The translations under genes were made by a program, and so were the position numbers. Under the pieces are notes generated by a model. The model was not told the origin of the DNA. It did no database searches and was given only the letters and a program-made list of their open reading frames with translations. Below, one piece after another: positions 1,044 through 22,501 of a DNA stretch of 39,762 nt (positions are counted from its first letter, which is position 1; every line of letters starts with the position of its first letter). The stretch is from Vicinamibacterales bacterium. Lineage in GTDB: Bacteria > Acidobacteriota > Vicinamibacteria > Vicinamibacterales > Fen-181. The stretch covers positions 1-39,762 of the forward strand of contig JARKSS010000007.1 in the NCBI GenBank assembly GCA_029974175.1, in the 5' to 3' direction.

Positions 1044-1124
1044 ATCCGAAGCCACGAGCGCAGCGAGCGCTTGAGCGAAGGCGCGCCATGCGAAGCCGCG
1101 AGCGCAGCGAGCGCTGGGCGAAGG
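1044..1124. repeat. imperfect tandem direct repeat, 38 nt + 37 nt, period 44
   Basis: 1044-1081 atccgaagccacgagcgcagcgagcgcttgagcgaagg. 1088-1124 atgcgaagccgcgagcgcagcgagcgctgggcgaagg. Confidence 0.85.
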
Positions 1125-1183
1125 ATGGGGTCTTTGCGCCGCCCGCCCTTTGTCCAGTAGGATCGGCCGGCGGAGGGGGAGAC

Positions 1184-3673
1184 ATGAAGCGAGCGGCGTG
1201 GCTGCTGGCAGGCATCATCTTCTTCACGGGAATCGTCGTGCTGGTTCCGAGGGCGCAGCGCGGAGCGCCGCCGCCCGCGCGCCCGGGAGCCCTTGGCGCC
1301 GGCGTCACCCTGCTGCCGAATGGATGGAAGATCGCCCCGGCCGGCGAGCACATGGCGGTTGGCGACCTGCCCCTCAACATGGTGATCGCCCCCGGCGGGC
1401 GGTTCTTGATCATCACCAACAACGGGTACGCCAAGCCGACCCTGACCGTCGTGGACCTGGAGAACCGGTTCGTGAAGGCGCGCGTGACGGTGGACCACGC
1501 CTGGCTGGGCCTCGCGTGGCATCCCGACGGCCGCCGGCTGTACTCCTCGGGCGCCGGGCAGAACACGGTGAACGAGTTCATCTGGGCCGACGACCGGTTG
1601 ACGCTGACCGGCTCGCACGTGCTCGGACGGCCCGAGCGGTATGCCGGTGCCGATTACCGCGAGAGCGCCGGCTTCATCGGCGGCGTGACCGTCGCCCCGG
1701 ACGGCAAGACACTCTACGCGGTCCACGTGCTGGGCACCGCGCTCTCGGCCGTCGATCTCGAGCGCAACCGGGTGCGGCAGACGATCACGCTGCCGGCCGA
1801 GCCCTACACCTGCCTCCTCTCCAGCGACGGGCAGACCCTGTTCGTCTCGTTGTGGGGCGGCGGGAAGGTGCTGCTGTTCGACCCCGCGACCCTTCAGCAG
1901 ACCGGCGAAATCGAGGTGGGCCAGCACCCGAACGCCATGCAGCTTTCGGCCGACGGCCGCCGCCTGTTCGTGGCGTGCGCGAACACGAACGCCGTCTGGG
2001 TGGTGGACCTTGCCGATCGGACGGCGCGCGAGCAGATCTCGGTGTCCCTTTATCCCAAGGCACCGGTGGGCAGCACGCCGAACGCGCTGGCGCTCTCACC
2101 CGACGGGAGGACGCTGCTGGTGGCGAACGCCGACAACAACACCGTTGCGGTGGTTGACGTCAGCGAGGCCGGCCGGAGCAAGGTCGAGGGCTTCATCCCG
2201 ACGGGCTGGTACCCGACGGGCGTCCAGTTCACCCCCGACGGGAAGCGGATTCTCGTGCTGAGCGGCAAGGGCCTGACGAGCATGGCCAACCCGCGCGGGC
2301 CGACCGGCGACTTCCAGTACTCGGGATCGATGCTGCAGGGGTCGCTCTCGATCCTGCCGACGCCCGACGCCCAGACCCTGGCCGCGATGACCAAGCAGGT
2401 CTACGAGCTGGTGCCGTACACCGAGGCGAACCGGCTCGCCCCGGCCGCGGCCCCGAAGGCGTCGCCGATCCCGGGACGGGTCGGCCAGCGCTCCCCCATC
2501 AAGTACGTCTTCTACGTCATCCGCGAGAACCGCACGTACGACCAGGTGCTCGGCGACATGCCGCGCGGCAACGGCGACCCGAACATCTGCCTGTTCGGCG
2601 AGAAGATCACCCCCAACGCGCACGCCCTGGCCGAGGAGTTCGTCCTCTTCGACAACTTCTACGTGGACGCCGAGGTCAGCATGGACGGCCACGCCTACTC
2701 CACCGCGGCGTACGCGACCGACGTCGTCGAGAAGATCTGGCCCACCAACTACGGGGGCCGCGGCGCCATCTACCTGAGCGAAGGCGGCTGGACGATGCGC
2801 GGCCCGTTCGGCAACTTCGCCGCGCCGCCTGAGGGATACATCTGGGACTTCGCCACGCGCGCCGGCATCTCGGTTCGCAGCTACGGCGAGTTCGCCGAGT
2901 GGAAGGAGCGGTGGGGACCGGTCGAGGCGACCGTTCCCGGGCTGAAGGGGAAGGTGCACCCGACCTACCCGCCCTACGACACGATGATCCCCGACAACAA
3001 GCGGGTGGACATCTGGCTGGAGGAGTTCCGGCAGTTCGAGGCCAACGGCCAGCTGCCGCGCCTGAACATCGTCCGGCTCGGGAACGACCACACCAACGGC
3101 ACGCGGCCCGACTCGCCCACGCCGAGGGCCATGGTCGCCGAGAACGACTATGCCGTGGGGCGCGTCGTGGAGGCGATCTCGAAGAGCCGCTACTGGAAGG
3201 AGTCGGCGATCTTCATCATCGAGGACGATGCGCAGAACGGGCCCGACCACGTGGACGCGCACCGCTCGGTGCTGCTGGTGGCCAGCCCGTTTGCGCGGCG
3301 CGGCGTGGTGGACTCGACCCTCTACACGACGTCGGGCGTGCTTCGCACGATGGAGCTGATCCTCGGCATCCCGCCGATGAGCCAGTACGACGCCGCGGCC
3401 ACACCGATGTACAACGCCTTCCAGGCGACGCCGGTGCTCACACCGTTCACGCTGCGGCCGGCGCAATACCCGTTCGACGAGATGAACGCCCCGAACGCGC
3501 CGGGCGCGCAGGCCTCGATCGAGATGAACCTCGAGGAGGCCGACATGGCTCCCGAGCTCGAGCTGAACGAGATCATCTGGAAGTCGGTGCACGGCGCCGA
3601 CGCGCGCATGCCGCCGCCGGTCCGCACCGGCTTCGTGAGGGCAATCCCGGAAGACGAAGACGACGAGAAGTAG
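1184..3673 (+). CDS. secreted fusion protein: N-terminal YVTN/lactonase-type beta-propeller plus C-terminal phosphoesterase (phospholipase C/acid phosphatase, PF04185-like) domain
   Basis: ORF 1088..3673. Preferred start is ATG 1184 (MKRAAWLLAGIIFFTGIVVL, TM/signal), preceded by GGAGGGGGA. Repeated 'SPDG..L.V.N...N.V.V.D' propeller blades. C-terminal motifs FYVIRENRTYDQVLGD, DNFYVDAEVSMDGH, GNDHTNG, IIEDDAQNGPDHVDAHRS. Confidence 0.8.
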   Translation: MKRAAWLLAGIIFFTGIVVLVPRAQRGAPPPARPGALGAGVTLLPNGWKIAPAGEHMAVGDLPLNMVIAPGGRFLIITNNGYAKPTLTVVDLENRFVKARVTVDHAWLGLAWHPDGRRLYSSGAGQNTVNEFIWADDRLTLTGSHVLGRPERYAGADYRESAGFIGGVTVAPDGKTLYAVHVLGTALSAVDLERNRVRQTITLPAEPYTCLLSSDGQTLFVSLWGGGKVLLFDPATLQQTGEIEVGQHPNAMQLSADGRRLFVACANTNAVWVVDLADRTAREQISVSLYPKAPVGSTPNALALSPDGRTLLVANADNNTVAVVDVSEAGRSKVEGFIPTGWYPTGVQFTPDGKRILVLSGKGLTSMANPRGPTGDFQYSGSMLQGSLSILPTPDAQTLAAMTKQVYELVPYTEANRLAPAAAPKASPIPGRVGQRSPIKYVFYVIRENRTYDQVLGDMPRGNGDPNICLFGEKITPNAHALAEEFVLFDNFYVDAEVSMDGHAYSTAAYATDVVEKIWPTNYGGRGAIYLSEGGWTMRGPFGNFAAPPEGYIWDFATRAGISVRSYGEFAEWKERWGPVEATVPGLKGKVHPTYPPYDTMIPDNKRVDIWLEEFRQFEANGQLPRLNIVRLGNDHTNGTRPDSPTPRAMVAENDYAVGRVVEAISKSRYWKESAIFIIEDDAQNGPDHVDAHRSVLLVASPFARRGVVDSTLYTTSGVLRTMELILGIPPMSQYDAAATPMYNAFQATPVLTPFTLRPAQYPFDEMNAPNAPGAQASIEMNLEEADMAPELELNEIIWKSVHGADARMPPPVRTGFVRAIPEDEDDEK

Positions 3674-3775: not shown

Positions 3776-4905
3776 CGTGGTCGCCGGGCCAGTTCCAGCA
3801 CCACCTCCGCGGCCCGGCGGCTGGCCCCCGGTCCCCCAAGCTTCTCCTTGACCGTGCGCACGCCGCGGAGCGCGCGGTCTCTCGCCTCGCCGGCACGAAG
3901 CAGGCGAAGAGCCTCATCCGCCACCGCTGACGCCGTGAAGCCCTCCTGGATCAGCTCGGGCACGACCCGCTCACCCGCCACCAGGTTCACCATCGCAAAG
4001 GTATCGACGTGCACGAAACGGCGGCCGACCGCGTACGTCAGCGAGGAGACCCGGTACACCACCACCATCGGCCGCTCGTGGATGGCCGCCTGCACCGTGG
4101 CGGTCCCTGACGCCGTAATCACCAGGTCGCACGCCGCCAGCACATCGTCCGCACGCCCCTCGACAACCGAGACAGGGGTTCCCCCGCCGATCCCGAACAA
4201 CCTCGGATCGAGGCCGGGCGCTCGCGCCACGAGGTACTGCGCACGCGGCGCGGCGGCCGAGATCGCCGTGGTCGCCTCGAGCAGCGTCGGCAGGATGGCG
4301 CTCACTTCATTGGGGCGGCTGCCTGGCAGCAGCGCGACGACCGGCGCAGCGGGATCGAGGCCAACGCTCCTCAGGAAGGTCTCGCGTGCCTCGGTCGGAC
4401 GGGCAAGTTCAAGCAGCGGGTGGCCGACGAAGGTGGCCTCTGTTCCCGCCCTGCGGTAGATTTCCGGCTCGAAGGGGAAGATCACGAGGATGCGGTCGGC
4501 GATCGCCCGAAGCCGGCGCATCCGGCCGCTGCGCCAGGCCCACAGCTGCGGCGGGATGTAGTAGACGAGCGGGATGCCCAGCCGCCGGAGCGATGCCGCG
4601 AGCCTGAAGTTGAAGTCGGGGAAATCAATCGCCACGGCCACGTCGGGGCGAACCTCCCGGGCCACGCCGAGCAGGCGCCGGTACATCAACAGCGACCGCG
4701 GCAGCACCCTGACCGCTTCGGCAAGCCCCGTCACCGCCAGCCCGCGGAAATCGCCCACCAGCTCGCCTCCTGCCGCCTTGAACTGATCGCCCCCCAGCCC
4801 CAGCAGGCGCACGCCAGGGTCGAGCGAGCGGAGCGAGGCGGCAAGGGCCCCCGCATACAGGTCGCCCGACGGCTCGCCGCACGAGATGAGGACGGTGGCT
4901 GGCAC
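3748..4905 (-). CDS. lpxB: lipid-A-disaccharide synthase
   Basis: Within ORF 3748..5358. The homologous part starts at GTG 4905-4903 (VPATVLISCGEPSGDLYAGALA...), overlapping the TAG of the upstream M16 gene. The upstream 151 codons are Arg/Pro-rich junk. Confidence 0.9.
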   Translation of the reverse strand: MPATVLISCGEPSGDLYAGALAASLRSLDPGVRLLGLGGDQFKAAGGELVGDFRGLAVTGLAEAVRVLPRSLLMYRRLLGVAREVRPDVAVAIDFPDFNFRLAASLRRLGIPLVYYIPPQLWAWRSGRMRRLRAIADRILVIFPFEPEIYRRAGTEATFVGHPLLELARPTEARETFLRSVGLDPAAPVVALLPGSRPNEVSAILPTLLEATTAISAAAPRAQYLVARAPGLDPRLFGIGGGTPVSVVEGRADDVLAACDLVITASGTATVQAAIHERPMVVVYRVSSLTYAVGRRFVHVDTFAMVNLVAGERVVPELIQEGFTASAVADEALRLLRAGEARDRALRGVRTVKEKLGGPGASRRAAEVVLELARRPRKAEMQDVK

Positions 4906-6428
4906 TAGCGGGCCCTCCGGAGGTCGGCGGAAAGAACGTCCAGCGCGCCCGCTGGAATCACCTCGAACTTGGGGAATCCCACGCGTCCGAGCTGCGGAAC
5001 GATCTCCTCGGCCCGGCCCACCAGGACCATGGTGAGGCGGTCGGGCTGGAAGCGGAGCGACGCGCGCGCCATGTCTTCGAGTGACACGATGTTCACCCGC
5101 TGGCGGTAGGTCTCGATGTCGCGGAGCGGCAGCCCGTAGAACAGCGCGTTCAACACCTGCGTGGCAATCTGCTCGGGCGTCTCGATCGTCAGCGGGAAGT
5201 GCCCGGTCACGTAGGCCTTCGCGTTGGCGAGTTCGCGGTCGTTGACGCGCTCGCGCTTCAGCCGCGCGAACTCGTTCACCATCAGCCGCAGCGCCTCGCC
5301 GGTGGTTTCGGCGCGCGTGCTGGTCTGGGCCACGAACTGGCCGCTCTGCTGCAGGCACTCCATCTCGGCCGACGCCGAGTAGGTGAGACCCCGCTCGATG
5401 CGCAGCACACGGTGCAGCCGGTTGGCACCGGCGCCGCCGAGGATCTTGATCAGCAGGTCGATGGCGACGTGGTCGTCCACCTTCCGCGGAACGCCGATCT
5501 GGCCTACGCGGATCTCGGTCTGTGCCGCGTCGGGGCGATCGATCACCACGAGCCGCCGTGCCGGATCGGGCGGCCGGGCCGGTGAAGGAGGCGGCAGCTC
5601 GCGCCGGGCCCAGTCGCCGAACGCCGAGGTGACCTGGGCCATCACCTCTTCGACCTCCACGTCCCCAACGACGGCGAGCAGCGTGTTGTTCGGCGCGTAG
5701 TGCGCCGCGTGAAACGCAGCCAGGTCGTCGCGCGTCAGCGCCTGCACCGACGCCACCGTCCCGTTACCGGGGAGGCCGTACGGGTGGGCACCGTAGACAA
5801 GCCGGTCGAACACCAGGTCGGCCAGGTACGACGGATCCTCGTAAGCCACCTTGAGTCCCGACAGCACCTGCTGCCGCTGCCGTTCCAGCTCTTCGGGTGC
5901 AAACGAGGGGCGGCAGAGGACGTCGGCCAGCAGGCGCATGCCGAACGCCAAATCGCCCTTCATCACGACCGCGTTCACGAAGGAGAGATCGCGTCCGAGA
6001 CCGGTGGTAAGCGTGCCGCCCACCCCGTCGATCGCCTCGGCAAGCTGCTGCGCGCTCTGCCCGGCCGCGCCCTGGTCGAGCAGTGTCGAAACCATCGCCG
6101 CCACGCCGGGCCGCCCCGGCGGGTCGTTCGCGCTGCCCGCCCGGACGATGGCGCGAAGGCTCACGACAGGCTGCTCGCGGTGGACAACAACCACCACCTG
6201 CAGGCCGTTCGGGAGGGTCTTGACCTCGTAGGCCGGGAAGCGAACGTCGCGGGCGGCCAACGGGCGGGGGGGACGGCTCGAGGGCCACTTGGGGGCCTGG
6301 GACTGTGACGCTGACACAGACACGGCCGCGGGCGAGGATGCCTGTGCCACTGGCAGAGGCAAGGACGCCTGCGCCACTGGAAGGGCGAGCACGGCGAGCG
6401 CGCACAAAAGGGCGGAGGGCGCGATCAT
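4905..6428 (-). CDS. M16 (pitrilysin/insulinase) family peptidase-like protein lacking the HxxEH motif (probable non-catalytic partner subunit); secreted
   Basis: ORF 4905..6428. Signal peptide MIAPSALLCALAVLALPVAQA. M16 N- and C-domain-like sequence, but no HxxEH is seen. ATGA overlap with the upstream M16 gene. Confidence 0.82.
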   Translation of the reverse strand: MIAPSALLCALAVLALPVAQASLPLPVAQASSPAAVSVSASQSQAPKWPSSRPPRPLAARDVRFPAYEVKTLPNGLQVVVVVHREQPVVSLRAIVRAGSANDPPGRPGVAAMVSTLLDQGAAGQSAQQLAEAIDGVGGTLTTGLGRDLSFVNAVVMKGDLAFGMRLLADVLCRPSFAPEELERQRQQVLSGLKVAYEDPSYLADLVFDRLVYGAHPYGLPGNGTVASVQALTRDDLAAFHAAHYAPNNTLLAVVGDVEVEEVMAQVTSAFGDWARRELPPPSPARPPDPARRLVVIDRPDAAQTEIRVGQIGVPRKVDDHVAIDLLIKILGGAGANRLHRVLRIERGLTYSASAEMECLQQSGQFVAQTSTRAETTGEALRLMVNEFARLKRERVNDRELANAKAYVTGHFPLTIETPEQIATQVLNALFYGLPLRDIETYRQRVNIVSLEDMARASLRFQPDRLTMVLVGRAEEIVPQLGRVGFPKFEVIPAGALDVLSADLRRAR

Positions 6429-7771
6429 GACGGCGGCAGCACGCGCAGGATCAGGCGGTTGGCCGGCGTGAAGTAGGTCCGGGCGACGCGCTGCACATCG
6501 GCGGCGGTCGCCTCCATGAGCAGGTCGAACTCCCGGTCGGCGCTGGCGATGTCGCCGTGGATGACGGCGGCATGCGCCAGGTGCGTCGCCTTCTGCTGGT
6601 TCGACGCGCGCCCGACGATGTAATCGCGTGCGAGCTGGTTCCTGGCTCGCGCCAGCTCACCGTCGGAAACGGCCTCGGCGGCAAGCCGGTCCAGTTCGGC
6701 CACCAGCGCGCGCTCGGCCTCGTCCAGGTCGTGGCCGGGCTGCACGACGGCGACGGCGAAGAACAGGTTCGGGTCCTCGGCGATGTTCGCGGTCCCGAAC
6801 GCGGAAAGCGCGAGCTGCTTCTCGTACACGAGGCTGCGGAAGATGCGCGAGCTTTGCCCGTCCGACAGGATCTTAGCCGCCACCACCAGTGGGTACGAAT
6901 CGGCCTGGCCGTCCGCCGGGATGTGGTGCGCGACGACGATGACTGGCAGCGGCCAGTTCTCGTGCAGCGTCACCCGGCGAAGCCTGGCCTGGGGCGGCTC
7001 GACGGGCCGCTCGCGGGGGACCGGCCGTGGCGAACGCGGCACCGGCCCGAGGTGCCGGCGCGCCAGCGCAATCGCCTCGTCGGCCTCGAAGTCGCCAACC
7101 AGCACGAGCGTGGCGTTGTTCGGCACGTAGTACGTCCGGTAGAACTCGCGGACATCCTCGATCGAGGCGGCCTCGAGATCCTTCATGCTGCCGACCGTCG
7201 TGTGCCGGTACGGGTGCACCGCGAACGCGTGCTCGTAAATCAGCTCCGACAACCGGCCGTACGGCTGGTTCTCGACGCGCATCCGCCGCTCTTCCTTCAC
7301 CACCTCGCGTTCGCGCCGGAACGTCTCCTCGTCCACCTTGAGCGAGGCCATCCGGTCGGCCTCGAGCCAGAGCACCAGCGGCAGGTATCGGGCGGGCAGC
7401 GTCGACCAGAAGACCGTCACGTCCTCGGTCGTGTACGCGTTGCTCTCGCCCCCCACCGAGGCGAGGAGCGACGCGTGCATGTCGGGACGCACGTTCTTCG
7501 AGCCCTTGAACATCATGTGCTCGAACAGGTGCGCGAAACCGGTCCGTCCCGGACGCTCGTCCTTCGATCCGACGTGATACCAGAGCTGCGAGTGGACGAT
7601 CGGCGTGGAGTGATCCTCGAGCACGACCACCCTGAGGCCGTTCTCGAGCGTGACCTGCCTGGCGTCGAGCCGCGGAGGCCGGGGGGCGGCGTCGGCTGCG
7701 ACGACCGCCAGGGCGGCCAGCGCGAGGACCGCTGGCAGCCGCGAGGTGGCCTCGGTCGGGCGCAACCGCAT
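6425..7771 (-). CDS. M16 family zinc peptidase (active-type, HxxEH present); secreted
   Basis: ORF 6425..7771. GFAHLFEHMMFKGS contains the inverted zinc motif HLFEH. Signal-like N-terminus. Confidence 0.9.
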   Translation of the reverse strand: MRLRPTEATSRLPAVLALAALAVVAADAAPRPPRLDARQVTLENGLRVVVLEDHSTPIVHSQLWYHVGSKDERPGRTGFAHLFEHMMFKGSKNVRPDMHASLLASVGGESNAYTTEDVTVFWSTLPARYLPLVLWLEADRMASLKVDEETFRREREVVKEERRMRVENQPYGRLSELIYEHAFAVHPYRHTTVGSMKDLEAASIEDVREFYRTYYVPNNATLVLVGDFEADEAIALARRHLGPVPRSPRPVPRERPVEPPQARLRRVTLHENWPLPVIVVAHHIPADGQADSYPLVVAAKILSDGQSSRIFRSLVYEKQLALSAFGTANIAEDPNLFFAVAVVQPGHDLDEAERALVAELDRLAAEAVSDGELARARNQLARDYIVGRASNQQKATHLAHAAVIHGDIASADREFDLLMEATAADVQRVARTYFTPANRLILRVLPPS

Positions 7772-10614: not shown

Positions 10615-11490
10615 GTGCCGCTGCTGGGCGCACACGTGTCGGTCGCCGGGGGGCTGCCGCTGGCCGTGGACCGGGCCGTTGCGCAGGGCTGCGACGCGTT
10701 CCAGATCTTCACCAAGTCATCGAACCAGTGGCGCGCGCGGCCCCTGCCGGCCGAGGAGGTCAGGCAGTTCCGCGAGCGGCTCGAGCGCAGCGCCATCGGT
10801 GTGGCGGTTGCGCACGCAAGCTACCTGATCAACCTCGCCTCGTCCGACCCGGTTCTCCGCGAACGCTCGCTGGCCTCGTTCGGCGAGGAGCTGGATCGCG
10901 TCGAGCTGCTCGGGCTGCTGGGCCTCGTGATCCACCCGGGCTGCGTGACGTCGGGAACGGACGAGAAAGGGCTTTCGCTGATTGCCTCGGCCATCGACGG
11001 CGCCCTCAGGGCGCGGCGCTCGGGCAAGGGCCTCGTCATCCTCGAGCACACGGCGGGACAGGGACGGTCGCTCGGATGGCGGTTCGAGCAGCTGGCGCGG
11101 ATCCTCGACCTCCTCGATGGGCATCGCCGGGTGGCCGTCTGTCTCGACACCTGCCACCTGGTCGCGGCCGGCTACGGCCTCTCGGGCGCGGCCGCCTACC
11201 GCCGCACCTTCGAGGCCTTCGATCGCCTCGTCGGCCTCGATCGATTGCAGGTGTTCCACCTGAACGATTCGAAGCGGCCGCCTGGCAGCCGCGTGGACCG
11301 CCACGATCACATCGGCCGAGGGGTGGTGGGGCGCGCGGCCTTCAGGCGGCTGCTCAACGACCCTCGCTTCGCGCACCTGCCCATGCTGCTCGAGACACCG
11401 AAGACCGAGGGCCGGCGGCCGAAGGACACCAGCCCCGACCCGCTGGACGTCATGAACCTCGCCACCCTTCGCGCACTCGTGCGACACTGA
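10615..11490 (+). CDS. nfo: deoxyribonuclease IV (endonuclease IV)
   Basis: ORF 10615..11490 (GTG). LLGAHVSVAGGL..AFQIFTKSSNQW..VIHPG..LEHTAGQG..CLDTCH..HLNDS motifs. Confidence 0.92.
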   Translation: MPLLGAHVSVAGGLPLAVDRAVAQGCDAFQIFTKSSNQWRARPLPAEEVRQFRERLERSAIGVAVAHASYLINLASSDPVLRERSLASFGEELDRVELLGLLGLVIHPGCVTSGTDEKGLSLIASAIDGALRARRSGKGLVILEHTAGQGRSLGWRFEQLARILDLLDGHRRVAVCLDTCHLVAAGYGLSGAAAYRRTFEAFDRLVGLDRLQVFHLNDSKRPPGSRVDRHDHIGRGVVGRAAFRRLLNDPRFAHLPMLLETPKTEGRRPKDTSPDPLDVMNLATLRALVRH

Positions 11491-11535
11491 CTCCGTCCTG
11501 GGCTGCGGCTACGGCGGGCAGGCCCTCCAACACTC

Positions 11536-11566
11536 CCTGCACCTCCTGCACCCCCTGCACGACCTG
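11536..11566. repeat. 9-nt tandem repeat (CCTGCACNN) x3.4
   Basis: CCTGCAC at 11536, 11545 and 11554, plus CCTG at 11563, in the nfo-amrB intergenic region. Confidence 0.8.
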
Positions 11567-11585
11567 TAAGTAGTAGGATCCTTTC

Positions 11586-15904: not shown

Positions 15905-15948
15905 CCTAGCCCCTAGCCCCTAGCCCCTAGCCCTTAGCTTAGCCCCTA
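15905..15948. repeat. heptamer tandem array (CTAGCCC)n, locus A
   Basis: CTAG at 15906, 15913, 15920 and 15927, then degenerate units TTAGCT and TAGCCCC. The last unit supplies the hsp20 stop codon (15946-15948). Confidence 0.9.
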
Positions 15949-16398
15949 TTCACTCACCTGCACCTGGATCTGCCGGGGCTTCGCCTCCTCGCGCACGGGC
16001 AGCCGCACCGTCAGCACCCCGGCCTTGTACTCGGCCGACACCTTCGAAGCGTCCACCGTGGGGGGGAGCGAGAACGAGCGGTTGAAGCGGCCGTACGTCC
16101 GCTCGACGCGGTGGCACTGCTCGTCGCGCATGTCCTCGCTCATCCGCTTCTCGCCGCCGATGGTGAGCGTGTTGTTCTCGACCGTCAGCTGGATGTCCTC
16201 GCGCTTCATGTCGGGCAGCTCGGCCTTGATCACCAGCTCACCCTTGCCGTTGTCGTAGATGTCCACGGGCGGCACCCACGCGCCGCGGCGCATCACGTCG
16301 TCGGCACCGCCACGCCCGTAGAACTCGCCGAGCAGGCGGCCCATGCGGTCCTGCATCTCCGACAGTTCGCGGAACGGATCCCAACGCACGATTGCCAT
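15946..16398 (-). CDS. Hsp20/alpha-crystallin family small heat-shock protein
   Basis: Within ORF 15946..16548. ATG 16398-16396 gives MAIVRWDPFRELSEMQDRM...VDIYDNGKGELVIKAELPDMKREDIQLTVENNTLTIGGEK...YGRFNRSFSLP...AEYKAGVLTVRLP. AGGAGG lies 5-6 nt upstream. Confidence 0.9.
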   Translation of the reverse strand: MAIVRWDPFRELSEMQDRMGRLLGEFYGRGGADDVMRRGAWVPPVDIYDNGKGELVIKAELPDMKREDIQLTVENNTLTIGGEKRMSEDMRDEQCHRVERTYGRFNRSFSLPPTVDASKVSAEYKAGVLTVRLPVREEAKPRQIQVQVSE

Positions 16399-16519
16399 GG
16401 TTTCCTCCTGAGCTGAACGACCCGGTTTGCTTCCGGGGCCGTGGGTCTTGCTCGCCGGCCCGCCGTGGCCCCCGGAGCGCCGCGAGCGCTGGCGACGGCG
16501 GGCGACCTCGACGATTCGA

Positions 16520-16548
16520 AGTCTACAACGGATATGAGCGTCTGTCAA
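16520..16548 (-). promoter_or_regulatory. sigma70-like promoter for hsp20: -35 TTGACA (16548-16543), 17-nt spacer, -10 TAGACT (16525-16520)
   Basis: The minus strand reads gcTTGACAgacgctcatatccgttgTAGACTtcg. It would give a GC-rich leader of about 115 nt before ATG 16398. Confidence 0.45.
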
Positions 16549-16787: not shown

Positions 16788-17906
16788 ATGGCGAAGTACA
16801 GGATTGCCTGGCTGCCGGGCGACGGGATTGGCGTGGAGGTTCTCGAGGCCGCGAAGATTGTCCTCGACCGCATCAGCCTCGACGCCGAGTACCTCCACGG
16901 CGACATCGGGTGGGACTTCTGGTGCCGCGAGGGTGACGCGTTTCCGGCCCGCACCATCGAGCTGCTCCGGAACGTTGACGCGGCAATGTTCGGCGCCATC
17001 ACCTCGAAGCCGGCCAAGGCTGCAGAAGCCGAACTGGCGCCCGAACTAAAGGGCAAGGGTCTCAGCTACCGCTCGCCCATCGTGCGCATGCGGCAGCTGT
17101 TCGATCTCTACATCTGCCTCCGGCCGTGCAAGGCCTACCCGGGCAACCCGCTCAACTACAAGGAAGGCCTCGACCTCGTCGTCTTCCGCGAGAACACCGA
17201 GGACCTGTATGCGGGCGTCGAGTTCTCGCCGGTGCCCGAAGCGCTCGCCACCGCGCTCGCCTCGCTCTCGAAGCCGTTCGGCGCGTTCAAGGACCTTGCG
17301 CCCGGCGAGTGTGCCATTTCGTGCAAGATCAACACCCGCAAGGGATCCGAGCGCATCGTCCGCGCAGCCTTCGACTTCGCCCGGAAGTTCGGGCGCAAGA
17401 AGGTCACCCTCGTCCACAAGGCGAACGTCGTCCGCGCCAGCGACGGGCTCTTCCTCGAAACGGCCCGCCAGGTCGCCAAGGACTACCCCGAGATCGCCAC
17501 CGACGAGGCCAACATCGACGCCATGACGATGTGGCTGCTGAAGAACCCGTTCAACTACGACGTGCTGGTCGCGCCCAACCTGTACGGCGACATCGTTTCC
17601 GACCTGTGCGCGCAGATGGTGGGCGGCCTCGGGTTCGGCTGCTCCGGCAACATCGGCGACAAGCTCGCGGTGTTCGAGCCGACGCACGGCTCGGCGCCGA
17701 AGCACGCGGGGCTCTACAAGGCGAACCCGATTGCCACCATCCTCGCCGCGAAGATGATGCTCGACTGGCTCGGCGAAACGGCGAAGGCCACGGCGCTCGA
17801 GCAGGCCACCGCCGCCGTCATCGCCGAGGGCAACGTCCGCACCTACGACATGGGCGGCTCGAGCACGACGCTCGAGATGGCACAGGCGATCGCCGCAAAG
17901 CTCTAA
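16788..17906 (+). CDS. isocitrate/isopropylmalate dehydrogenase family enzyme, prokaryotic-IDH-like architecture, substrate uncertain
   Basis: ORF 16788..17906. LPGDGIGVEV, RSPIVRMRQLFDLYICLRP, FRENTEDLYAG, LVHKANV, NLYGDIVSD, HGSAPKHAG motifs. GAGG lies 7 nt upstream. Confidence 0.9.
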   Translation: MAKYRIAWLPGDGIGVEVLEAAKIVLDRISLDAEYLHGDIGWDFWCREGDAFPARTIELLRNVDAAMFGAITSKPAKAAEAELAPELKGKGLSYRSPIVRMRQLFDLYICLRPCKAYPGNPLNYKEGLDLVVFRENTEDLYAGVEFSPVPEALATALASLSKPFGAFKDLAPGECAISCKINTRKGSERIVRAAFDFARKFGRKKVTLVHKANVVRASDGLFLETARQVAKDYPEIATDEANIDAMTMWLLKNPFNYDVLVAPNLYGDIVSDLCAQMVGGLGFGCSGNIGDKLAVFEPTHGSAPKHAGLYKANPIATILAAKMMLDWLGETAKATALEQATAAVIAEGNVRTYDMGGSSTTLEMAQAIAAKL

Positions 17907-17926
17907 GACAAGCTCCAGGAGCCGCG

Positions 17927-18847
17927 ATGCCCGAGATCATCCTTCACGAGGTCGGCCTTCGGGACGGCCTGCAGATCGAGAAGGCCATCGTGCCGACGGC
18001 GCAGAAGATTGCCTGGGTGCAGGCGCTCGACGCGGCCGGCGTCGACATGGTGCAGGCCGGATCGTTCGTGCACCAGCAGAAGGTGCCGCAGATGGCCGAC
18101 ACCGACGACCTGTTCCGGCACTTCCAGGATCCGGCGAACCGCCCGGCGAAGGCCCGCCTCACCGCGCTCGTGCTGAACGAGAAGGGGCTCGATCGCGGTT
18201 TTGCGTGCGGCGTCACCTACTTCTGCATGGGCGTGTCGGCGAGCGACACCCACAGCCGCAAGAACACCGGCATGAGCACCGCCGAGGCCACCGAGCGCAT
18301 CATCGCGATGGGCCGGCGGGCGCTCGAGGCCGGTGCGGACGTCCAGGTCTCGGTGCAGTCGGCCTTCGGGTGCGGCTTCGAGGGGCCGATCCCCGAGGCG
18401 CGCGTGCTCGATCTCGCCCGCCGGTTCCATGACGCGGGACTGCGGCAGATCAGCCTGGCCGACACGGCGGGGCACGCCACGCCCGACCAGGTGGAGCGGC
18501 TGTTCACCGCGGTGCAGGCCATCGACCCGTCGATCGAGTGCGCCTGCCACCTGCACAACACGTACGGAATGGGGCTCGCCAACGCGTACGCCGCGCTGCG
18601 CGCCGGCGTGAAGTACTTCGAGGCGGCGTTCGGCGGCCTCGGCGGCTGCCCCTTCACGAAGATCACCGGCGGCAACGTCTGCACCGAGGATCTCGTGCAC
18701 ATGCTGCAGCGGATGGGATACCGGCCCGACGTGAAGCTCGACGCCCTGGTGGACCTCGCCCGGGCGGTTGGCGCCTTCCTCGGCCGCGACCTGACCGGCG
18801 CGCTCGTGAAGACCGGCCCCATCCCGCGCTTCGAAACCACAACGTAG
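17927..18847 (+). CDS. HMG-CoA-lyase-type (HMGL-like TIM barrel) acyl-CoA lyase, substrate uncertain
   Basis: Within ORF 17126..18847. ATG 17927, with AGGAG 5 nt upstream, gives MPEIILHEVGLRDGLQIEK...SFVHQQKVPQMAD...CHLHNTYGMGLAN...FGGLGGCPF. The RDG, HxH and GGCP motifs are of HMG-CoA-lyase type rather than LeuA type. Confidence 0.88.
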   Translation: MPEIILHEVGLRDGLQIEKAIVPTAQKIAWVQALDAAGVDMVQAGSFVHQQKVPQMADTDDLFRHFQDPANRPAKARLTALVLNEKGLDRGFACGVTYFCMGVSASDTHSRKNTGMSTAEATERIIAMGRRALEAGADVQVSVQSAFGCGFEGPIPEARVLDLARRFHDAGLRQISLADTAGHATPDQVERLFTAVQAIDPSIECACHLHNTYGMGLANAYAALRAGVKYFEAAFGGLGGCPFTKITGGNVCTEDLVHMLQRMGYRPDVKLDALVDLARAVGAFLGRDLTGALVKTGPIPRFETTT

Positions 18848-18960
18848 GGGCGGCGCTTGTGGCCGCCCCCGGCGCGACCCTCGTGGCCGCCCTGACGGCA
18901 GACAACGGACACCCGACATCGCAGGGGCGACCTTTGTGGTCGCCCTCGGGGGCCACCCCG
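18847..18960. repeat. cluster of three related GC-rich hairpins (REP-like) in the 127-nt intra-operon gap
   Basis: H1 18847-18869: GGGGCGGC-gcttgtg-GCCGCCCC. H2 about 18871-18892: imperfect. H3 18924-18946: (G)GGGCGACC-tttgt-GGTCGCCC. The shared core TGTGGYCGCCC occurs three times. Confidence 0.7.
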
Positions 18961-18974
18961 CACACGGAGATCAC

Positions 18975-20168
18975 ATGAAGCTCCTCGAAGGCATCCGGGT
19001 CGTGGACATGACCAACGTCCTGGCCGGCCCGTTCGCCACGCTCCACCTGGCGTTGGCCGGCGCCGAGGTGATCAAGATCGAAACCCCTGGATCCGGCGAC
19101 CTGGCCCGCAAGCTCGGGAACGTGCCCGAGCTGAGCCAGCAGCTGATGGGGACCTCCTTCCTGGCGCAGAACGCGAACAAGAAGTCGCTCACGCTGAACC
19201 TGAAGGAGGAGGCCGGCAAGGAAGTCTTCAGCCGGCTGCTCAAGACTGCCGACGTCCTGGTCGAGAACTTCCGGCCCGGCGTCGTGGCGCGCCTCGGCTT
19301 CCCGTGGGAACGGCTCCACGAGATGAACCCGCGGCTCATCTACTGCGCCATCTCGGGGTTCGGGCAGACGGGTCCCGACGCCGACAAGCCGGCCTACGAC
19401 CAGATCATCCAGGGGCTGAGCGGCGTGATGGCGATCAACGGCGACGAGCGGCTGAACCCGCTGCGCGCCGGCTTCCCGCTCTGCGACACGGTCGGCGGCC
19501 TCAACGCCGCCTTCGCCGTGATGGGCGCGCTCTTCTACCGCGAGCGCACCGGCCGCGGGCAGTTCATCGACGTCGCCATGCTCGACTCGATCATGCCGCT
19601 GCTCGGGTGGGTGGCCGCCAACTGGCTGATTGGCGGGAAGCCGCCGCAGCTGATGGGTAACGACAACATGACCGCCGCGCCGTCGGGCACCTTCCGCACG
19701 GCCGACGGGTACATCAACATCGCCGCCAACGAGCAGAAGCAGTGGGAGGCCCTCTGCGACGAGCTGGGGCTGCCCCAGCTGAAGACCGACGAGCGCTTCC
19801 AGAAGCGCGACGTGCGGAAGGCGAACCGGAAGGCGCTCACGCCGATCATCGAGGAGAAGCTCACCCAGAAGCCGACCGCCGAGTGGGTCGAGCGCCTCAA
19901 CGCGCGTGGCGTTCCCTCGGGCGCGATCCTCTCGCTCCAGGAGGCGCTCGCCCAGCCGCAGGTCGAGCACCGCCGCAGCATCCAGACGGTGAACGAGCCC
20001 GGGATCGGGCCGCTGAAGCTGTTCACGCTGACGGCGAAGTTCTCCGAGACGCCCGGCTGCATCGAGACGCCGCCGCCGCGCCTCGGGGCCCACACGACGG
20101 AGATCCTCCAGTCGCTTGGCTACTCGGACGCCGAGATCGACGCGCTGCGGGCGGCGAAGGTGGTGTAG
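18975..20168 (+). CDS. family III CoA-transferase (CaiB/BaiF/Frc type)
   Basis: Within ORF 18936..20168. ATG 18975 gives MKLLEGIRVVDMTNVLAGPFATLHLALAGAEVIKIE.P..GD. A catalytic-Asp-like context is present (PLCDTVGG). Confidence 0.9.
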   Translation: MKLLEGIRVVDMTNVLAGPFATLHLALAGAEVIKIETPGSGDLARKLGNVPELSQQLMGTSFLAQNANKKSLTLNLKEEAGKEVFSRLLKTADVLVENFRPGVVARLGFPWERLHEMNPRLIYCAISGFGQTGPDADKPAYDQIIQGLSGVMAINGDERLNPLRAGFPLCDTVGGLNAAFAVMGALFYRERTGRGQFIDVAMLDSIMPLLGWVAANWLIGGKPPQLMGNDNMTAAPSGTFRTADGYINIAANEQKQWEALCDELGLPQLKTDERFQKRDVRKANRKALTPIIEEKLTQKPTAEWVERLNARGVPSGAILSLQEALAQPQVEHRRSIQTVNEPGIGPLKLFTLTAKFSETPGCIETPPPRLGAHTTEILQSLGYSDAEIDALRAAKVV

Positions 20169-20200
20169 GCGGGGCACCGCGGTTCACGAAGGAGACACCC

Positions 20201-21481
20201 ATGGGCATGACCATCGTCCAGAAGATCCTGGCGCGGGCCGCCGGGCGCAGCGAGGTGGCGGTTGGCGAGGTGGTGGAACCGGCCGTCGATCTCGCGATGT
20301 CGCACGAGAACGGGGCGCTGGTGATGAACCAGTTCTTCGAGGTGTTCAAGGGCACGGGCCTCGAGCCGACGGTGTGGGACCCCTCGAAGATCGCCATCAT
20401 CCTCGATCACCGCGTCCCGGCCGAGAGCGCCAAGACGGCCACCAACCAGAAGAAGATCCGCGAGTTCGTCGCCAAGCAGGGCATCACGAAGTTCCACGAC
20501 ATCCGCGGCGACCAGGGGGGCATCTGCCACCAGATCCTCCCCGAGCACGGCTACACGCGCCCGGGCCAGGTCATCGTCGGCACCGACAGCCACACGACCA
20601 GTCACGGCGCGGTCGGCGCCTTCTCGTTCGGCATCGGCGCCACCGAGATGGCCGGCGTCTGGGCGCTCGGCCGGATCTTCAACGTCGAGGTGCCCGCCAC
20701 CATCAAGGTGGTGGTCAACGGCGTGCTGCCCGAGGGCGTCCTGCCGAAGGACCTGATCCTCCACCTGATCGGCTCGATTTCCGCCGAGGGCGCCAACTTC
20801 CAGGTGATCGAGTTCCACGGCCGCGGCGTCACCTCGATGCCGCTCTCGGGCCGGCTGACGATCTGCAACATGAGCGTCGAGGCGGGCGCCACCTCGGGCA
20901 TCGTCCCCGCCGACGCCGAGACCGAGCGGTACCTGCGCGAGGAGGCCGGCGTCACCGATCCACTCGACATGGTGGCCCCCGACGCCGACGCCGAGTACTC
21001 GCGCGTCATCGAGATCGACGCCGCGTCGCTCGCCCCGCAGATCGCCTGCCCGCACACGGTCGATCGCGTCAGGCCGGTGGACCAGGTGGCCGGCGTCAAA
21101 GTGCACCAGATCGTGATCGGCTCCTGCACCAACGGCCGCCTCGACGACCTCGAGGTGGCGGCCCGCATCCTCAAGGGGCGCCGCGTGGCCAACGGCGTGC
21201 GGATGCTGATCTTCCCCGCCTCCTGGCGGATCTACCGCGAGGCGCTGCGGCGGGGAATGCTGGCTGAACTCGTGGATGCCGGCGCGGTGGTGATGAACCC
21301 GGGCTGCGGCTGCTGCCTGGGCGTACACCAGGGGGCGCTCGGCGACGGCGAGGTGGCCCTCTCGACGACCAACCGCAACTTCAAGGGGCGCATGGGCAAC
21401 CCGAACGCCGAGGTCTACCTGTGCTCGCCGGCCGTGGCCGCGGCGAGCGCGCTCACCGGCGTCATCACGGATCCCCGGTAG
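20201..21481 (+). CDS. aconitase-family hydro-lyase large subunit, archaeal-type LeuC/HacA-like (about 426 aa)
   Basis: Within ORF 19742..21481. ATG 20201, preceded by AAGGAGA, gives MGMTIVQKILARAAG. Motifs GTDSHT, IGSCTNGR, PGCGCCLG (Fe-S Cys ligands) and NRNFKGRMG. Confidence 0.9.
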   Translation: MGMTIVQKILARAAGRSEVAVGEVVEPAVDLAMSHENGALVMNQFFEVFKGTGLEPTVWDPSKIAIILDHRVPAESAKTATNQKKIREFVAKQGITKFHDIRGDQGGICHQILPEHGYTRPGQVIVGTDSHTTSHGAVGAFSFGIGATEMAGVWALGRIFNVEVPATIKVVVNGVLPEGVLPKDLILHLIGSISAEGANFQVIEFHGRGVTSMPLSGRLTICNMSVEAGATSGIVPADAETERYLREEAGVTDPLDMVAPDADAEYSRVIEIDAASLAPQIACPHTVDRVRPVDQVAGVKVHQIVIGSCTNGRLDDLEVAARILKGRRVANGVRMLIFPASWRIYREALRRGMLAELVDAGAVVMNPGCGCCLGVHQGALGDGEVALSTTNRNFKGRMGNPNAEVYLCSPAVAAASALTGVITDPR

Positions 21482-21497
21482 AGGGAGGCGCAGCACC

Positions 21498-21995
21498 ATG
21501 GCACAAGTGGTCCTCACGCTTGCCGACGACATCTCGACCGACGTCATCTACCCCGGCCGCTTCATGGCGACCGTCCTGCCGTCGGAGACCCCGCAGTTCG
21601 CCTTCGCAGACTACGAGATCAACGCGCGCCTGAAGAGCGGCCAGATCGCGCCCGGCAGCGCGATCGTGGCCGGGGCCAACTTCGGCTGCGGCTCGTCGCG
21701 CGAGCAGGCCGCGTCGACGCTCAAGGGACACGAGCTGATCGTGGTGGCCAAGGGGTTCGCGCGGATCTTCCTGCAGAACTCCGCCAACCTCGGCCTGCGG
21801 ACGATCATCTGCCCCGACATCGAGGCCTCGGTGGGCGACGAACTCGAGTTCACGCCGGCCGAGGTCGTCAACAAGACGACCGGGAAGCGCTTCGAGATCG
21901 TGCCGCTGCCCAAGGCGCGCCAGGACATCATCGACGCGGGCGGCCTCATCGCCTACACCCGGAAGCGCCTGCTCGAAGCACGCGGCGCGGCGTAA
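21498..21995 (+). CDS. aconitase-family hydro-lyase small subunit, LeuD/HacB-like (165 aa)
   Basis: ORF 21498..21995. DDISTDVIYPGRF..., GANFGCGSSREQA, FARIF..N..N.GL motifs. Confidence 0.9.
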   Translation: MAQVVLTLADDISTDVIYPGRFMATVLPSETPQFAFADYEINARLKSGQIAPGSAIVAGANFGCGSSREQAASTLKGHELIVVAKGFARIFLQNSANLGLRTIICPDIEASVGDELEFTPAEVVNKTTGKRFEIVPLPKARQDIIDAGGLIAYTRKRLLEARGAA

Positions 21996-22021
21996 GGGGG
22001 GGCGGCGGCTACCCGCCCCCC
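21996..22021 (+). terminator. GC-rich stem-loop immediately after the leuD-like stop (no U-tract)
   Basis: GGGGGCGG (21998-22005) - cggctac - CCGCCCCC (22013-22020), extendable by G:C pairs. Similar GGGCGG/CCGCCC stems occur at 3719-3736 and 18847-18869. Confidence 0.4.
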
Positions 22022-22045
22022 GCCCTCCTGTGTCAAGATCGCCTC

Positions 22046-22501
22046 ATGCGCGACTTCGACCGGATCATGCTGACGTCGGAGGTCCAGGACCTCCCGGAGG
22101 AGGTCGGGCGCCTGTTCGAGGACCTCGACCGCACGGCGGCCGGGCGCCCGCAGCCGCCCGGCCACTGCACGCCGGCCCTCGACGTCATCGAGTGTGAGTC
22201 GAAGGTCGAGGTCGTCGTGGACCTGCCCGGCGTGGCGCCCGATCGCGTCCGCGTCCTGCTGAAGAACGGCCAGCTGCTGATCGTGGGCGAGAAGTGCTCG
22301 CCCTACGTCGGCGAGCAGCGGCATGCCCGCTTCCAGCTGGTCGAGCGGGGCTTCGGCCGCTTCGCGCGCGCCGTCACGCTGAACGGGGCGTTCGACGCCG
22401 CCGCCGCGCAAGCCACCTTCAGGAGCGGCGAGCTGCGCATCACGGTGCCCCGGATCGCCGAGCGGAGGGGGCAGGAGTTCCCGGTGGCGATCGGCGGGTG
22501 A
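22046..22501 (+). CDS. Hsp20/alpha-crystallin family protein (divergent)
   Basis: ORF 22046..22501. PALDVIECESKVEVVVDLPGVAPDRVRVLLKNGQLLIVGEK...FGRFARAVTL...ATFRSGELRITVPR. No obvious SD. Confidence 0.78.
   Translation: MRDFDRIMLTSEVQDLPEEVGRLFEDLDRTAAGRPQPPGHCTPALDVIECESKVEVVVDLPGVAPDRVRVLLKNGQLLIVGEKCSPYVGEQRHARFQLVERGFGRFARAVTLNGAFDAAAAQATFRSGELRITVPRIAERRGQEFPVAIGG

Follow-up and report, generated by a model that had tools for sequence, protein, structure and literature searches.

A conserved five-gene cassette of uncultured bacteria as a candidate module for 2-oxoadipate cleavage by a reversed upper α-aminoadipate pathway

We analysed a 39,762-nucleotide stretch of DNA from a Vicinamibacterales bacterium (GenBank assembly GCA_029974175.1, contig JARKSS010000007.1, forward strand), hereafter the window. 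At 16788–21995 it carries a five-gene operon encoding an isocitrate dehydrogenase (IDH)-like β-decarboxylating dehydrogenase, a 3-hydroxy-3-methylglutaryl-CoA (HMG-CoA) lyase-type enzyme of the HMGL family, a family III CoA-transferase, and the two subunits of a LeuCD-type Fe–S hydro-lyase. The reading we favour, with a probability of about 0.45, is that this cassette breaks 2-oxoadipate into 2-oxoglutarate and acetyl-CoA by running the upper α-aminoadipate pathway in reverse. The homocitrate synthase reaction includes hydrolysis of the thioester and in effect cannot be reversed, which would explain why a transferase and lyase pair takes the place of the synthase and why no LeuA-type gene is present.

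The four proposed steps were deduced from sequence and gene context. The dehydrogenase, of NADP(H) type, is proposed to be a homoisocitrate dehydrogenase run as a reductive carboxylase, which would convert 2-oxoadipate, CO2 and NADPH to homoisocitrate. The LeuCD-like pair is a proposed homoaconitase that would take homoisocitrate through cis-homoaconitate to homocitrate. The transferase, which resembles human succinate–hydroxymethylglutarate CoA-transferase (SUGCT), would then act as a succinyl-CoA (or acetyl-CoA):homocitrate CoA-transferase and form homocitryl-CoA, and the HMGL-type enzyme, a proposed homocitryl-CoA lyase, would release 2-oxoglutarate and acetyl-CoA. In a second cassette type described below, a CoA-independent lyase of the ICL/PEPM family would instead give 2-oxoglutarate and acetate. 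The 2-oxoadipate would derive from lysine or pipecolate breakdown via 2-aminoadipate, and the product 2-oxoglutarate could serve as amino acceptor for the preceding lysine steps. Judged by textbook values for the citrate analogues, carboxylation would be slightly uphill, and isomerisation and CoA-dependent cleavage would both lie close to equilibrium, with mass action favouring cleavage.

Gene set and conservation of the cassette

The five genes are co-directional, with gaps of 20, 127, 32 and 16 nt, and every start has a GAGG/AGGAG-type Shine–Dalgarno sequence 6–10 nt upstream. An independent database gene call returns the same five products (372, 306, 397, 426 and 165 aa), which together with the open reading frames bears out the layout given in a preliminary description of this DNA. 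The gene content given there is likewise upheld by Pfam (E-values of 1e-12 to 1e-125; scores in Table 1) and NCBIfam, and its claim that the catalytic motifs are intact also stands, with all of the motifs that it named present and motif or catalytic residues kept in about 180–210 orthologues. In profile scoring all five proteins fall below every NCBIfam equivalog cut-off, and by this measure none of them is a known enzyme. The window had been described as lacking leuA, cimA and citrate synthase; we found none of these among its annotatable genes, nor any synthase of the LeuA, CimA or homocitrate synthase type among its annotated genes, and a second HMGL-domain gene, as expected for such a synthase, was found in none of 235 related loci at E<1e-3.

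These 235 loci, of which 210 are unique, were collected in three genome scans. All of the records are metagenome-assembled genomes (MAGs) or uncultured, and their proteins are 60–88% identical to those of the window. Of the 210 unique loci, 118 show all five genes in the order dehydrogenase–lyase–transferase–LeuC–LeuD; most others are truncated by contig ends, split or rearranged. More than 15 phylum-level labels are represented, including Acidobacteriota (with Aminicenantes), Chloroflexota, Ignavibacteriota, Bacteroidota, Zixibacteria, Omnitrophota, Eisenbacteria, Elusimicrobiota, Verrucomicrobiota, Myxococcota and Gemmatimonadota, among others. The five-gene synteny is thus strongly conserved in relatives, and we take the five genes to be one selected unit. 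The flanks of the cassette are otherwise unrelated, with no flanking family common to more than about 16 loci, and the G+C content of the first gene, the dehydrogenase, is lowered (0.66 vs 0.70). The cassette looks like a horizontally spread accessory unit. No orthologue of the cassette was found in the plasmid collection, where all matches were below 45% identity.

Substrate loop of the dehydrogenase

The substrate loop of the dehydrogenase (YRSPIVRMRQ) is invariant in 183 orthologues and shares the residues S-P-I-V with the homoisocitrate dehydrogenase (HICDH) of S. pombe (PDB ID: 3ty3; GYSSPIVALRK), the corresponding loop being RSLNV in IDH and GAIRY in the HICDH of Thermus. Because the S. 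pombe enzyme has the same SPIV loop, the missing Arg85 of the Thermus enzyme is no argument against homoisocitrate. With respect to IDH, Ser113 is kept, and all 183 orthologues have Ile in place of Asn115; when the substrate segment is compared with the PDB, the N115L mutant of E. coli IDH (1grp) comes out best. In the orthologue alignment the cofactor motif, HGSAPK(Y/H)AG, is of the E. coli NADP-IDH type, which we count in favour of the homocitrate reading.

The overall score of the dehydrogenase lies between those of NAD-IDH and Thermus HICDH. Its best NCBIfam match is the homoisocitrate dehydrogenase AksF2, at 337.7 bits against a cut-off of 540; it also misses the other homoisocitrate equivalogs (AksF, 289.7 vs 500; iso_homocit_dh, 192 vs 680), every IDH equivalog, and leuB (198.6 vs 353). 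A clade-specific conserved insertion of about 13 residues, SKPAKAAEAELAPELKGKG, lies at about residues 72–95, just before the substrate loop, and is absent from the aligned solved structures of IDH and HICDH.

Lysine-catabolic genes beside the cassette

Nine unique loci have a gene for the dehydrogenase of L-piperidine-6-carboxylate (P6C; 2-aminoadipate semialdehyde) adjoining the cassette. In three of them (L129, L135 and L151) it interrupts the cassette, standing between the genes for the transferase and LeuC. In another three it is directly upstream on the same strand, two of these having the five-gene type (L110 and L139) and one, from an Acidobacteriota MAG, the lyase-only type (L235). 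In three more it is divergent from the cassette. Both of the genes that were scored (L110 and L235) pass the NCBIfam P6C dehydrogenase equivalog, with 769 and 770 bits against 730. In L139 the P6C dehydrogenase gene is itself preceded by a gene for a sarcosine/pipecolate-oxidase-like FAD enzyme and, before that, an OCD/mu-crystallin-family gene of the lysine cyclodeaminase or piperideine-2-carboxylate reductase type.

Saccharopine-dehydrogenase-like genes adjoin the cassette in nine unique Chloroflexota loci, upstream in some and downstream in others; in seven of the nine they are within 57–189 nt on the same strand. Other recurrent neighbours are omega-aminotransferase, LivJ-type binding proteins and an EamA transporter. 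Enzymes of the P6C, saccharopine and pipecolate types make 2-aminoadipate from lysine, and the transamination product of 2-aminoadipate is 2-oxoadipate.

A second cassette type with an ICL/PEPM lyase

An ICL/PEPM-family lyase is encoded between orthologous dehydrogenase and LeuCD genes in 13 loci. It replaces the HMGL lyase and the CoA-transferase in 11 of them, which come from Verrucomicrobiota, Sumerlaeota, Aminicenantes, Anaerolineae and Acidobacteriota. The protein has 310 aa and a KRCGH motif. In structural comparison it is most like petal death protein, which cleaves 2-alkylmalates and oxaloacetate; methylisocitrate and dimethylmalate lyases come next. The ICL/PEPM protein lacks the Arg with which PrpB holds the succinate-derived carboxylate, and for this reason should release acetate.

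The presence of this lyase in the cassette points to C–C cleavage of a 2-substituted malate. Since it needs no thioester, its use would argue for cleavage and not for biosynthetic condensation; by our own estimate, mass action works against a condensation of free acetate with a scarce 2-oxoacid. If the transferase of the five-gene type recycles CoA, for example between acetyl-CoA and acetate, then transferase and HMGL lyase would have the same net outcome as the ICL/PEPM lyase, a 2-substituted malate giving a 2-oxoacid and acetate.

Lyase, transferase and isomerase

The HMGL-type lyase passes one NCBIfam model only, the HMG-CoA lyase subfamily NF004283 (268.6 bits against a cut-off of 246), and its closest structures are the bacterial HMG-CoA lyases 1ydo and 6nds, as well as the human enzyme. 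It has the motifs GLRDGLQ, CHLHNTYG and GLGGCPF, in which the RDG, H-x-H and GGCP residues are conserved across about 210 orthologues. Where 1ydo and 6nds have the signature Glu that completes the D-R-E triad (E72 in the human enzyme), it has Gln (VQAGSF), as do all seven common variants listed among the 210 lyase orthologues. In the region of residues about 40–56, the clade has Lys where most solved enzymes have Trp (Trp in 1ydo, Ala in 6nds). The Gln and Lys together suggest a more electropositive pocket.

For the transferase, the best solved relative is human SUGCT (9br6, 288 bits), and formyl-CoA and oxalate CoA-transferases come next. The best NCBIfam match is the succinate–glutarate CoA-transferase NF052585, at 302.7 bits, which misses the equivalog cut-off of 750. 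The catalytic Asp, in the motif CDT, aligns with that of SUGCT and is conserved in the 198 orthologues examined. Homocitrate is 3-carboxy-3-hydroxyadipate, and by analogy the resemblance to SUGCT and glutarate CoA-transferase, with their 3-hydroxy-3-substituted C5/C6 diacids, would fit homocitrate as a substrate class.

The large subunit of the isomerase passes the cut-offs of two NCBIfam subfamilies, PRK00402 (555 bits vs 385) and hacA_fam (514 vs 385.7), and misses that of LEU2 (442.9 vs 610.65). Its Fe–S cysteine motifs SCTNG and GCG(P/C)C are conserved in orthologues, as is the GCGSSRE motif of the small subunit. The best NCBIfam match of the small subunit is HacB2, with 106 bits, and leud is missed (102.5 vs 245.85); its specificity loop, IYPGR(F/Y)MATVLP, is invariant in orthologues. 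The best family similarities, AksF2, HacA and HacB2, point the same way, to the homoisocitrate/homoaconitase side.

Substrate and direction

Several observations weigh against the homocitrate reading. The main conflict is in the LeuD-like subunit, where the segment GRFMAT has Ala at the position of the substrate-binding Arg of the MJ1271 homoaconitase (GPYLRT). This subunit also scores higher against the subunit of the isopropylmalate/citramalate isomerase, MJ1277 (3vba, 99.6 bits), than against the homoaconitase MJ1271 (2pkp, 86.7 bits). Linkage to lysine genes is confined to about 19 of the 210 loci (~9%), nearly all from Chloroflexota, and the window is not among them; its own neighbours are housekeeping genes, with no lysine genes, so that its context is uninformative. 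Among the matches listed, the cassette was within 9 kb in none of 80 sampled P6C-dehydrogenase loci, a weak negative because the sample missed the query locus itself, and the cassette has no linked aminoadipate aminotransferase gene. Both lyase systems occur in one string in two loci (L125:5992-12365 and L128:1578-7946), in the order HMGL lyase–CoA-transferase–ROK-family protein–ICL/PEPM lyase–LeuC–LeuD, with the dehydrogenase elsewhere in the MAG. To our knowledge, the reductive carboxylation of 2-oxoadipate is not documented as a physiological reaction. It is the Ala of the LeuD-like loop, the sparse lysine linkage, the empty P6C sample and the uninformative context in the window that keep the probability of the homocitrate reading at the level given above.

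The closeness of the LeuD-like subunit to MJ1277, with a loop without Arg, would suit an uncharged 2-alkylmalate, and a cleavage or reversible module for such an acid is a rather unlikely alternative. The acid would be chiefly (R)-citramalate, in the sequence 2-oxobutyrate + CO2 <-> 3-methylmalate <-> citramalate <-> citramalyl-CoA <-> pyruvate + acetyl-CoA, with isopropylmalate as the second candidate (2-oxoisocaproate <-> 2-oxoisovalerate + acetyl-CoA). Such substrates would also agree with the Ile and Val found in the dehydrogenase in place of Asn115 of IDH and Arg85 of Thermus HICDH, with an ICL/PEPM lyase that resembles the 2-alkylmalate-cleaving petal death protein and is without the succinate-binding Arg of PrpB, and with a VorB-type oxidoreductase as neighbour. 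Chloroflexus, moreover, pairs an HMGL-family R-citramalyl-CoA lyase with a family III transferase. However, no Chloroflexus or Roseiflexus is among the 210 loci, and a scan re-seeded with a Chloroflexota lyase gave only Anaerolineae-type MAGs. An alkylmalate would also leave the fusions with P6C dehydrogenase, saccharopine-dehydrogenase-like and pipecolate-oxidase-like genes unexplained, the SPIV loop is that of a homoisocitrate-specific enzyme, and the three LeuBCD-like proteins score far below the NCBIfam leucine-pathway equivalog cut-offs. A citramalate/isoleucine reading had led on the strength of the LeuD similarity and the hydrophobic dehydrogenase loop; it was downgraded because P6C dehydrogenase is fused to the cassette and SPIV is the motif of the fungal HICDH.

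The preliminary description had allowed for two directions, thioester-conserving synthesis of a citrate-type or alkylmalate-type acid and ATP-independent cleavage of one. Of these, cleavage is favoured by the ICL/PEPM stand-in, the fused lysine genes and the SPIV loop, and synthesis is less likely. The anabolic version would be a 2-oxoacid elongation in which acetyl-CoA and a 2-oxoacid condense to an alkylmalyl-CoA, followed by CoA transfer, isomerisation and oxidative decarboxylation, for example from 2-oxoglutarate to 2-oxoadipate in aminoadipate-route lysine synthesis, or from pyruvate to 2-oxobutyrate for isoleucine. In its favour, each of the four reaction types could in principle run either way, the gene set resembles the LeuABCD, aminoadipate and tricarboxylic acid (TCA) cycle modules, the surroundings in the window are housekeeping genes, and conservation as high as this could fit a core role in biosynthesis. 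We nevertheless consider elongation unlikely: a CoA-independent lyase replaces lyase and transferase in some genomes, where condensation would have to start from free acetate, unfavourable on the estimate given above; the P6C dehydrogenase fused to the cassette works in the catabolic sense, oxidising the semialdehyde to give aminoadipate; none of the 210 loci has linked LysW-type or ilv/leu genes; and the variable flanks are those of a horizontally spread accessory cassette.

Among the acids that had been listed for the cleavage route, homocitrate emerges as the best candidate, given the fused lysine genes and the SPIV loop, and citrate/isocitrate is disfavoured. A TCA-type module would comprise a citryl-CoA lyase, a succinyl-CoA:citrate CoA-transferase, a LeuCD-type aconitase and an NADP-IDH, and would serve energy-conserving citrate synthesis or, in a reductive TCA variant, ATP-independent citrate cleavage. 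The substrate segment and NADP motif of the dehydrogenase are indeed most like the E. coli-type NADP-IDH, a 2-oxoacid:ferredoxin oxidoreductase is near the cassette in some phyla, and operons of Re-citrate synthase, aconitase and IDH occur in Clostridia and Bacteroides. The residues speak against it: the equivalent of the γ-carboxylate-binding Asn115 is Ile in 183/183 orthologues, with the N115L structure as best segment match; the LeuD-like loop has no Arg to match Arg580 of aconitase or Arg26 of homoaconitase; and the ICL/PEPM lyase is without the succinate-binding Arg of PrpB. As the lysine-gene fusions would go unexplained too, we regard a TCA-type role as improbable. This reading was the one considered first, from the citrate synthase–aconitase–IDH operon analogy and the oxidoreductase neighbour, and was downgraded on the residue checks in the three enzymes.

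The cassette might also be no unit at all, and consist of an HMG-CoA lyase and CoA-transferase for leucine or hydroxymethylglutarate catabolism that happen to adjoin leuB/C/D genes for leucine biosynthesis. The lyase passes the HMG-CoA lyase subfamily cut-off, the transferase is nearest to the succinate–hydroxymethylglutarate CoA-transferase structure, the 127-nt spacer contains hairpins, and in some genomes the other three genes are not found near the lyase and transferase. Two adjacent units of this kind, which the preliminary description had named as a case that would refute it, are nonetheless highly improbable. The five-gene order is kept in more than half of the unique loci, across many phyla and between otherwise unrelated flanks, with the lyase and transferase nested between the dehydrogenase and isomerase genes; the spacer hairpins are genome-specific and without a T-run; the LeuBCD-like proteins miss all leucine equivalog cut-offs; and the signature Glu of HMG-CoA lyases is missing throughout the lyase clade.

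Genomic surroundings

The features of the operon are collected in Table 1, together with the lyase-only cassettes.

Table 1. Positions of the operon features in the window, and loci with the lyase-only cassette.
Feature	Position	Strand	Basis
IDH-like β-decarboxylating dehydrogenase, NADP-type, 372 aa	16788-17906	+	Pfam Iso_dh, 291 bits
HMG-CoA-lyase-type (DRE-TIM) C–C lyase, 306 aa	17927-18847	+	Pfam HMGL-like PF00682, 149.9 bits vs cut-off 29
Spacer, 127 nt, with three 21-nt GC-rich palindromic units at 18848-18945	18848-18974	+	
Family III CoA-transferase, 397 aa	18975-20168	+	Pfam CoA_transf_3, 419.5 bits, residues 4-374
Archaeal-type LeuC/HacA-like Fe–S hydro-lyase large subunit, 426 aa	20201-21481	+	Pfam Aconitase
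LeuD/HacB-like small subunit, 165 aa	21498-21995	+	Pfam Aconitase_C
G+C-rich hairpin directly behind the last stop codon of the operon	21996-22025	+	Sequence reading; without T-run; absent from terminator-scan output
Lyase-only cassette, dehydrogenase–ICL/PEPM lyase–LeuC–LeuD	L165, L166 (5595-6527), L180, L183, L207, L208, L212, L233, L235		

The window has a G+C content of about 70%, and its nearest relatives are Vicinamibacterales (Acidobacteriota) MAGs. The neighbours of the cassette encode LpxD, GatCA, RpoZ, YmdB, XseAB, IspA, TlyA, NadK, MltG and ThrRS, in addition to two Hsp20 proteins. The hairpin behind the last stop codon possibly marks the end of the operon. The spacer between the lyase and transferase genes consists in large part of three tandem palindromic units (GGGCGRC..T.GTGGYCGCCC), which are counted three times in the window against 0.11 expected, with no further copy anywhere in its 39.8 kb. 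The fold energy of the spacer has a z-score of −1.96, the terminator scan found no T-run after the palindromes, and the lyase–transferase gap in relatives is often just 8–60 nt. Because the copies are restricted to this one place in the window, lack a T-run and fill a gap that is shorter in relatives, the hairpins look like a local insertion, similar to a repetitive extragenic palindrome, and not like a terminator or other conserved feature of the operon.

The two Hsp20/α-crystallin genes flank the cassette, at 15946-16548 (−) and 22046-22501 (+), and the upstream one also adjoins the lyase gene in related Vicinamibacterales MAGs (e.g. L005). In these MAGs, one chromosomal site (GatA ... Hsp20 – X – YmdB – XseA) occurs with three versions of content, namely lyase and transferase only, LeuCD with lyase and transferase, and all five genes, as seen by comparing L002, L005 and L007-L009 with L003, L004, L006 and the window; in one Vicinamibacterales MAG the dehydrogenase is on a separate contig (L159). 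We read this as a cassette that is undergoing rearrangement within the Vicinamibacterales. Further away in the window are a pair of genes for M16 zinc-peptidase subunits (4905-7771, −) and, upstream of the pair on the opposite strand, a gene for an 861-aa protein (1088-3673, +) in which a signal peptide, a β-propeller and a phosphoesterase-like domain were recognised by eye.

In Bacteroidota (L011:1971-5680; also L019, L026, L037 and L039) the cassette is preceded on the same strand by genes for a three-subunit 2-oxoacid:ferredoxin oxidoreductase, whose alpha subunit scores above the NCBIfam VorB subfamily cut-off, and for a conserved protein of 206–251 aa that matches neither Pfam nor NCBIfam. 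In Ignavibacteria this oxidoreductase is encoded downstream of the cassette, in convergent orientation. On the homocitrate reading, it could turn 2-oxoglutarate into succinyl-CoA, a donor for the transferase.

Regulatory genes were seen in two groups. Rrf2-family regulators, of the Fe–S/redox-sensing type, stand on both sides of the cassette in Ignavibacteria (L022:5003-5476 and 11065-11574; L064). In Zixibacteria (L068:2614-5901; also L070, L072 and L078), a GAF-domain sigma-54 activator and a protein of 463 aa without a family match lie upstream of a lyase–transferase–LeuCD set, and these loci have no dehydrogenase gene within 7 kb.

Comparison with known pathways and significance

In the upper α-aminoadipate pathway of fungi, Thermus and archaea, isomerisation and β-decarboxylating dehydrogenation are carried out by members of the same two enzyme families as here. 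The cassette differs in that it has no homocitrate synthase and has a CoA-transferase and HMGL lyase, or an ICL/PEPM lyase, instead; its proposed direction is catabolic, and its cofactor motif is NADP-type and not NAD-type. The citramalate pair of Chloroflexus, compared here by description only, likewise consists of an adjacent family III CoA-transferase and HMG-CoA-lyase-family lyase that act on a 3-hydroxy-3-substituted diacid; EC 2.8.3.20 is listed in PMC8085960.

Citrate cleavage, whether by CitDEF, by citryl-CoA synthetase and citryl-CoA lyase, or by the ATP-citrate lyase of the reductive TCA cycle, applies the same logic of thioester formation followed by lysis to a hydroxy-tricarboxylate that is made irreversibly. 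The cassette would join such a cleavage to an aconitase-type isomerase and an IDH-type reductive carboxylation. Its transferase and lyase folds are unrelated to those of citrate cleavage, however; its substrate is probably one carbon longer, and its purpose would be amino-acid catabolism in place of CO2 fixation or citrate fermentation. For the enzyme pair of the second cassette type there is a precedent in nicotinate fermentation, where the LeuCD-type DmdAB works with a 2,3-dimethylmalate lyase of the ICL/PEPM family, but no β-decarboxylating dehydrogenase takes part there, and the substrate cannot be isomerised and then oxidised.

Reviews of lysine catabolism give only two fates for 2-oxoadipate, the 2-oxoadipate dehydrogenase route to glutaryl-CoA and the HglS (DUF1338) route to 2-hydroxyglutarate (PMC7286885). 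The cassette would share their input, downstream of an AmaB-type P6C dehydrogenase, and would differ from them in chemistry, which would consist of carboxylation, isomerisation and retro-Claisen cleavage and would need neither O2 nor glutaryl-CoA dehydrogenase. In our searches of the full-text literature, neither the gene combination nor homocitryl-CoA, isopropylmalyl-CoA or a homocitrate lyase was described. The enzyme families are known, as is the transferase-plus-lyase logic, from citrate cleavage and from the citramalate enzymes of Chloroflexus; the novelty would lie in how the genes are combined, in an ICL/PEPM lyase that can stand in for the pair, and in running the upper aminoadipate pathway backwards, as proposed here. 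The broader claim, that the cassette represents an unrecognised O2-free degradation of lysine, with a homocitrate CoA-transferase and homocitryl-CoA lyase as well as an ICL/PEPM homocitrate lyase, and has spread horizontally through more than 15 mostly uncultured phyla of soil and sediment, is made tentatively, at somewhat less than an even chance.

If the homocitrate reading is right, the cassette would provide a third, O2-independent fate of 2-oxoadipate beside the glutaryl-CoA and HglS routes. It would also account for an operon, very common in MAGs from soil, sediment and groundwater, that now carries the mistaken annotation 'HMG-CoA lyase / CaiB / LeuCD / isocitrate dehydrogenase'. Next to the citrate cleavage of the reductive TCA cycle, it would be a second clear example of a biosynthetic pathway reversed by exchanging an irreversible synthase for a lyase system. 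New specificities would be defined in four well-studied enzyme superfamilies, and the rule by which homoaconitases are recognised from the LeuD loop, drawn from methanogen enzymes, may not be universal. Should the substrate be another alkylmalate, the cassette would still be a conserved, uncharacterised module of central metabolism, whose two interchangeable lyases may be useful in the design of carbon-conserving pathways.

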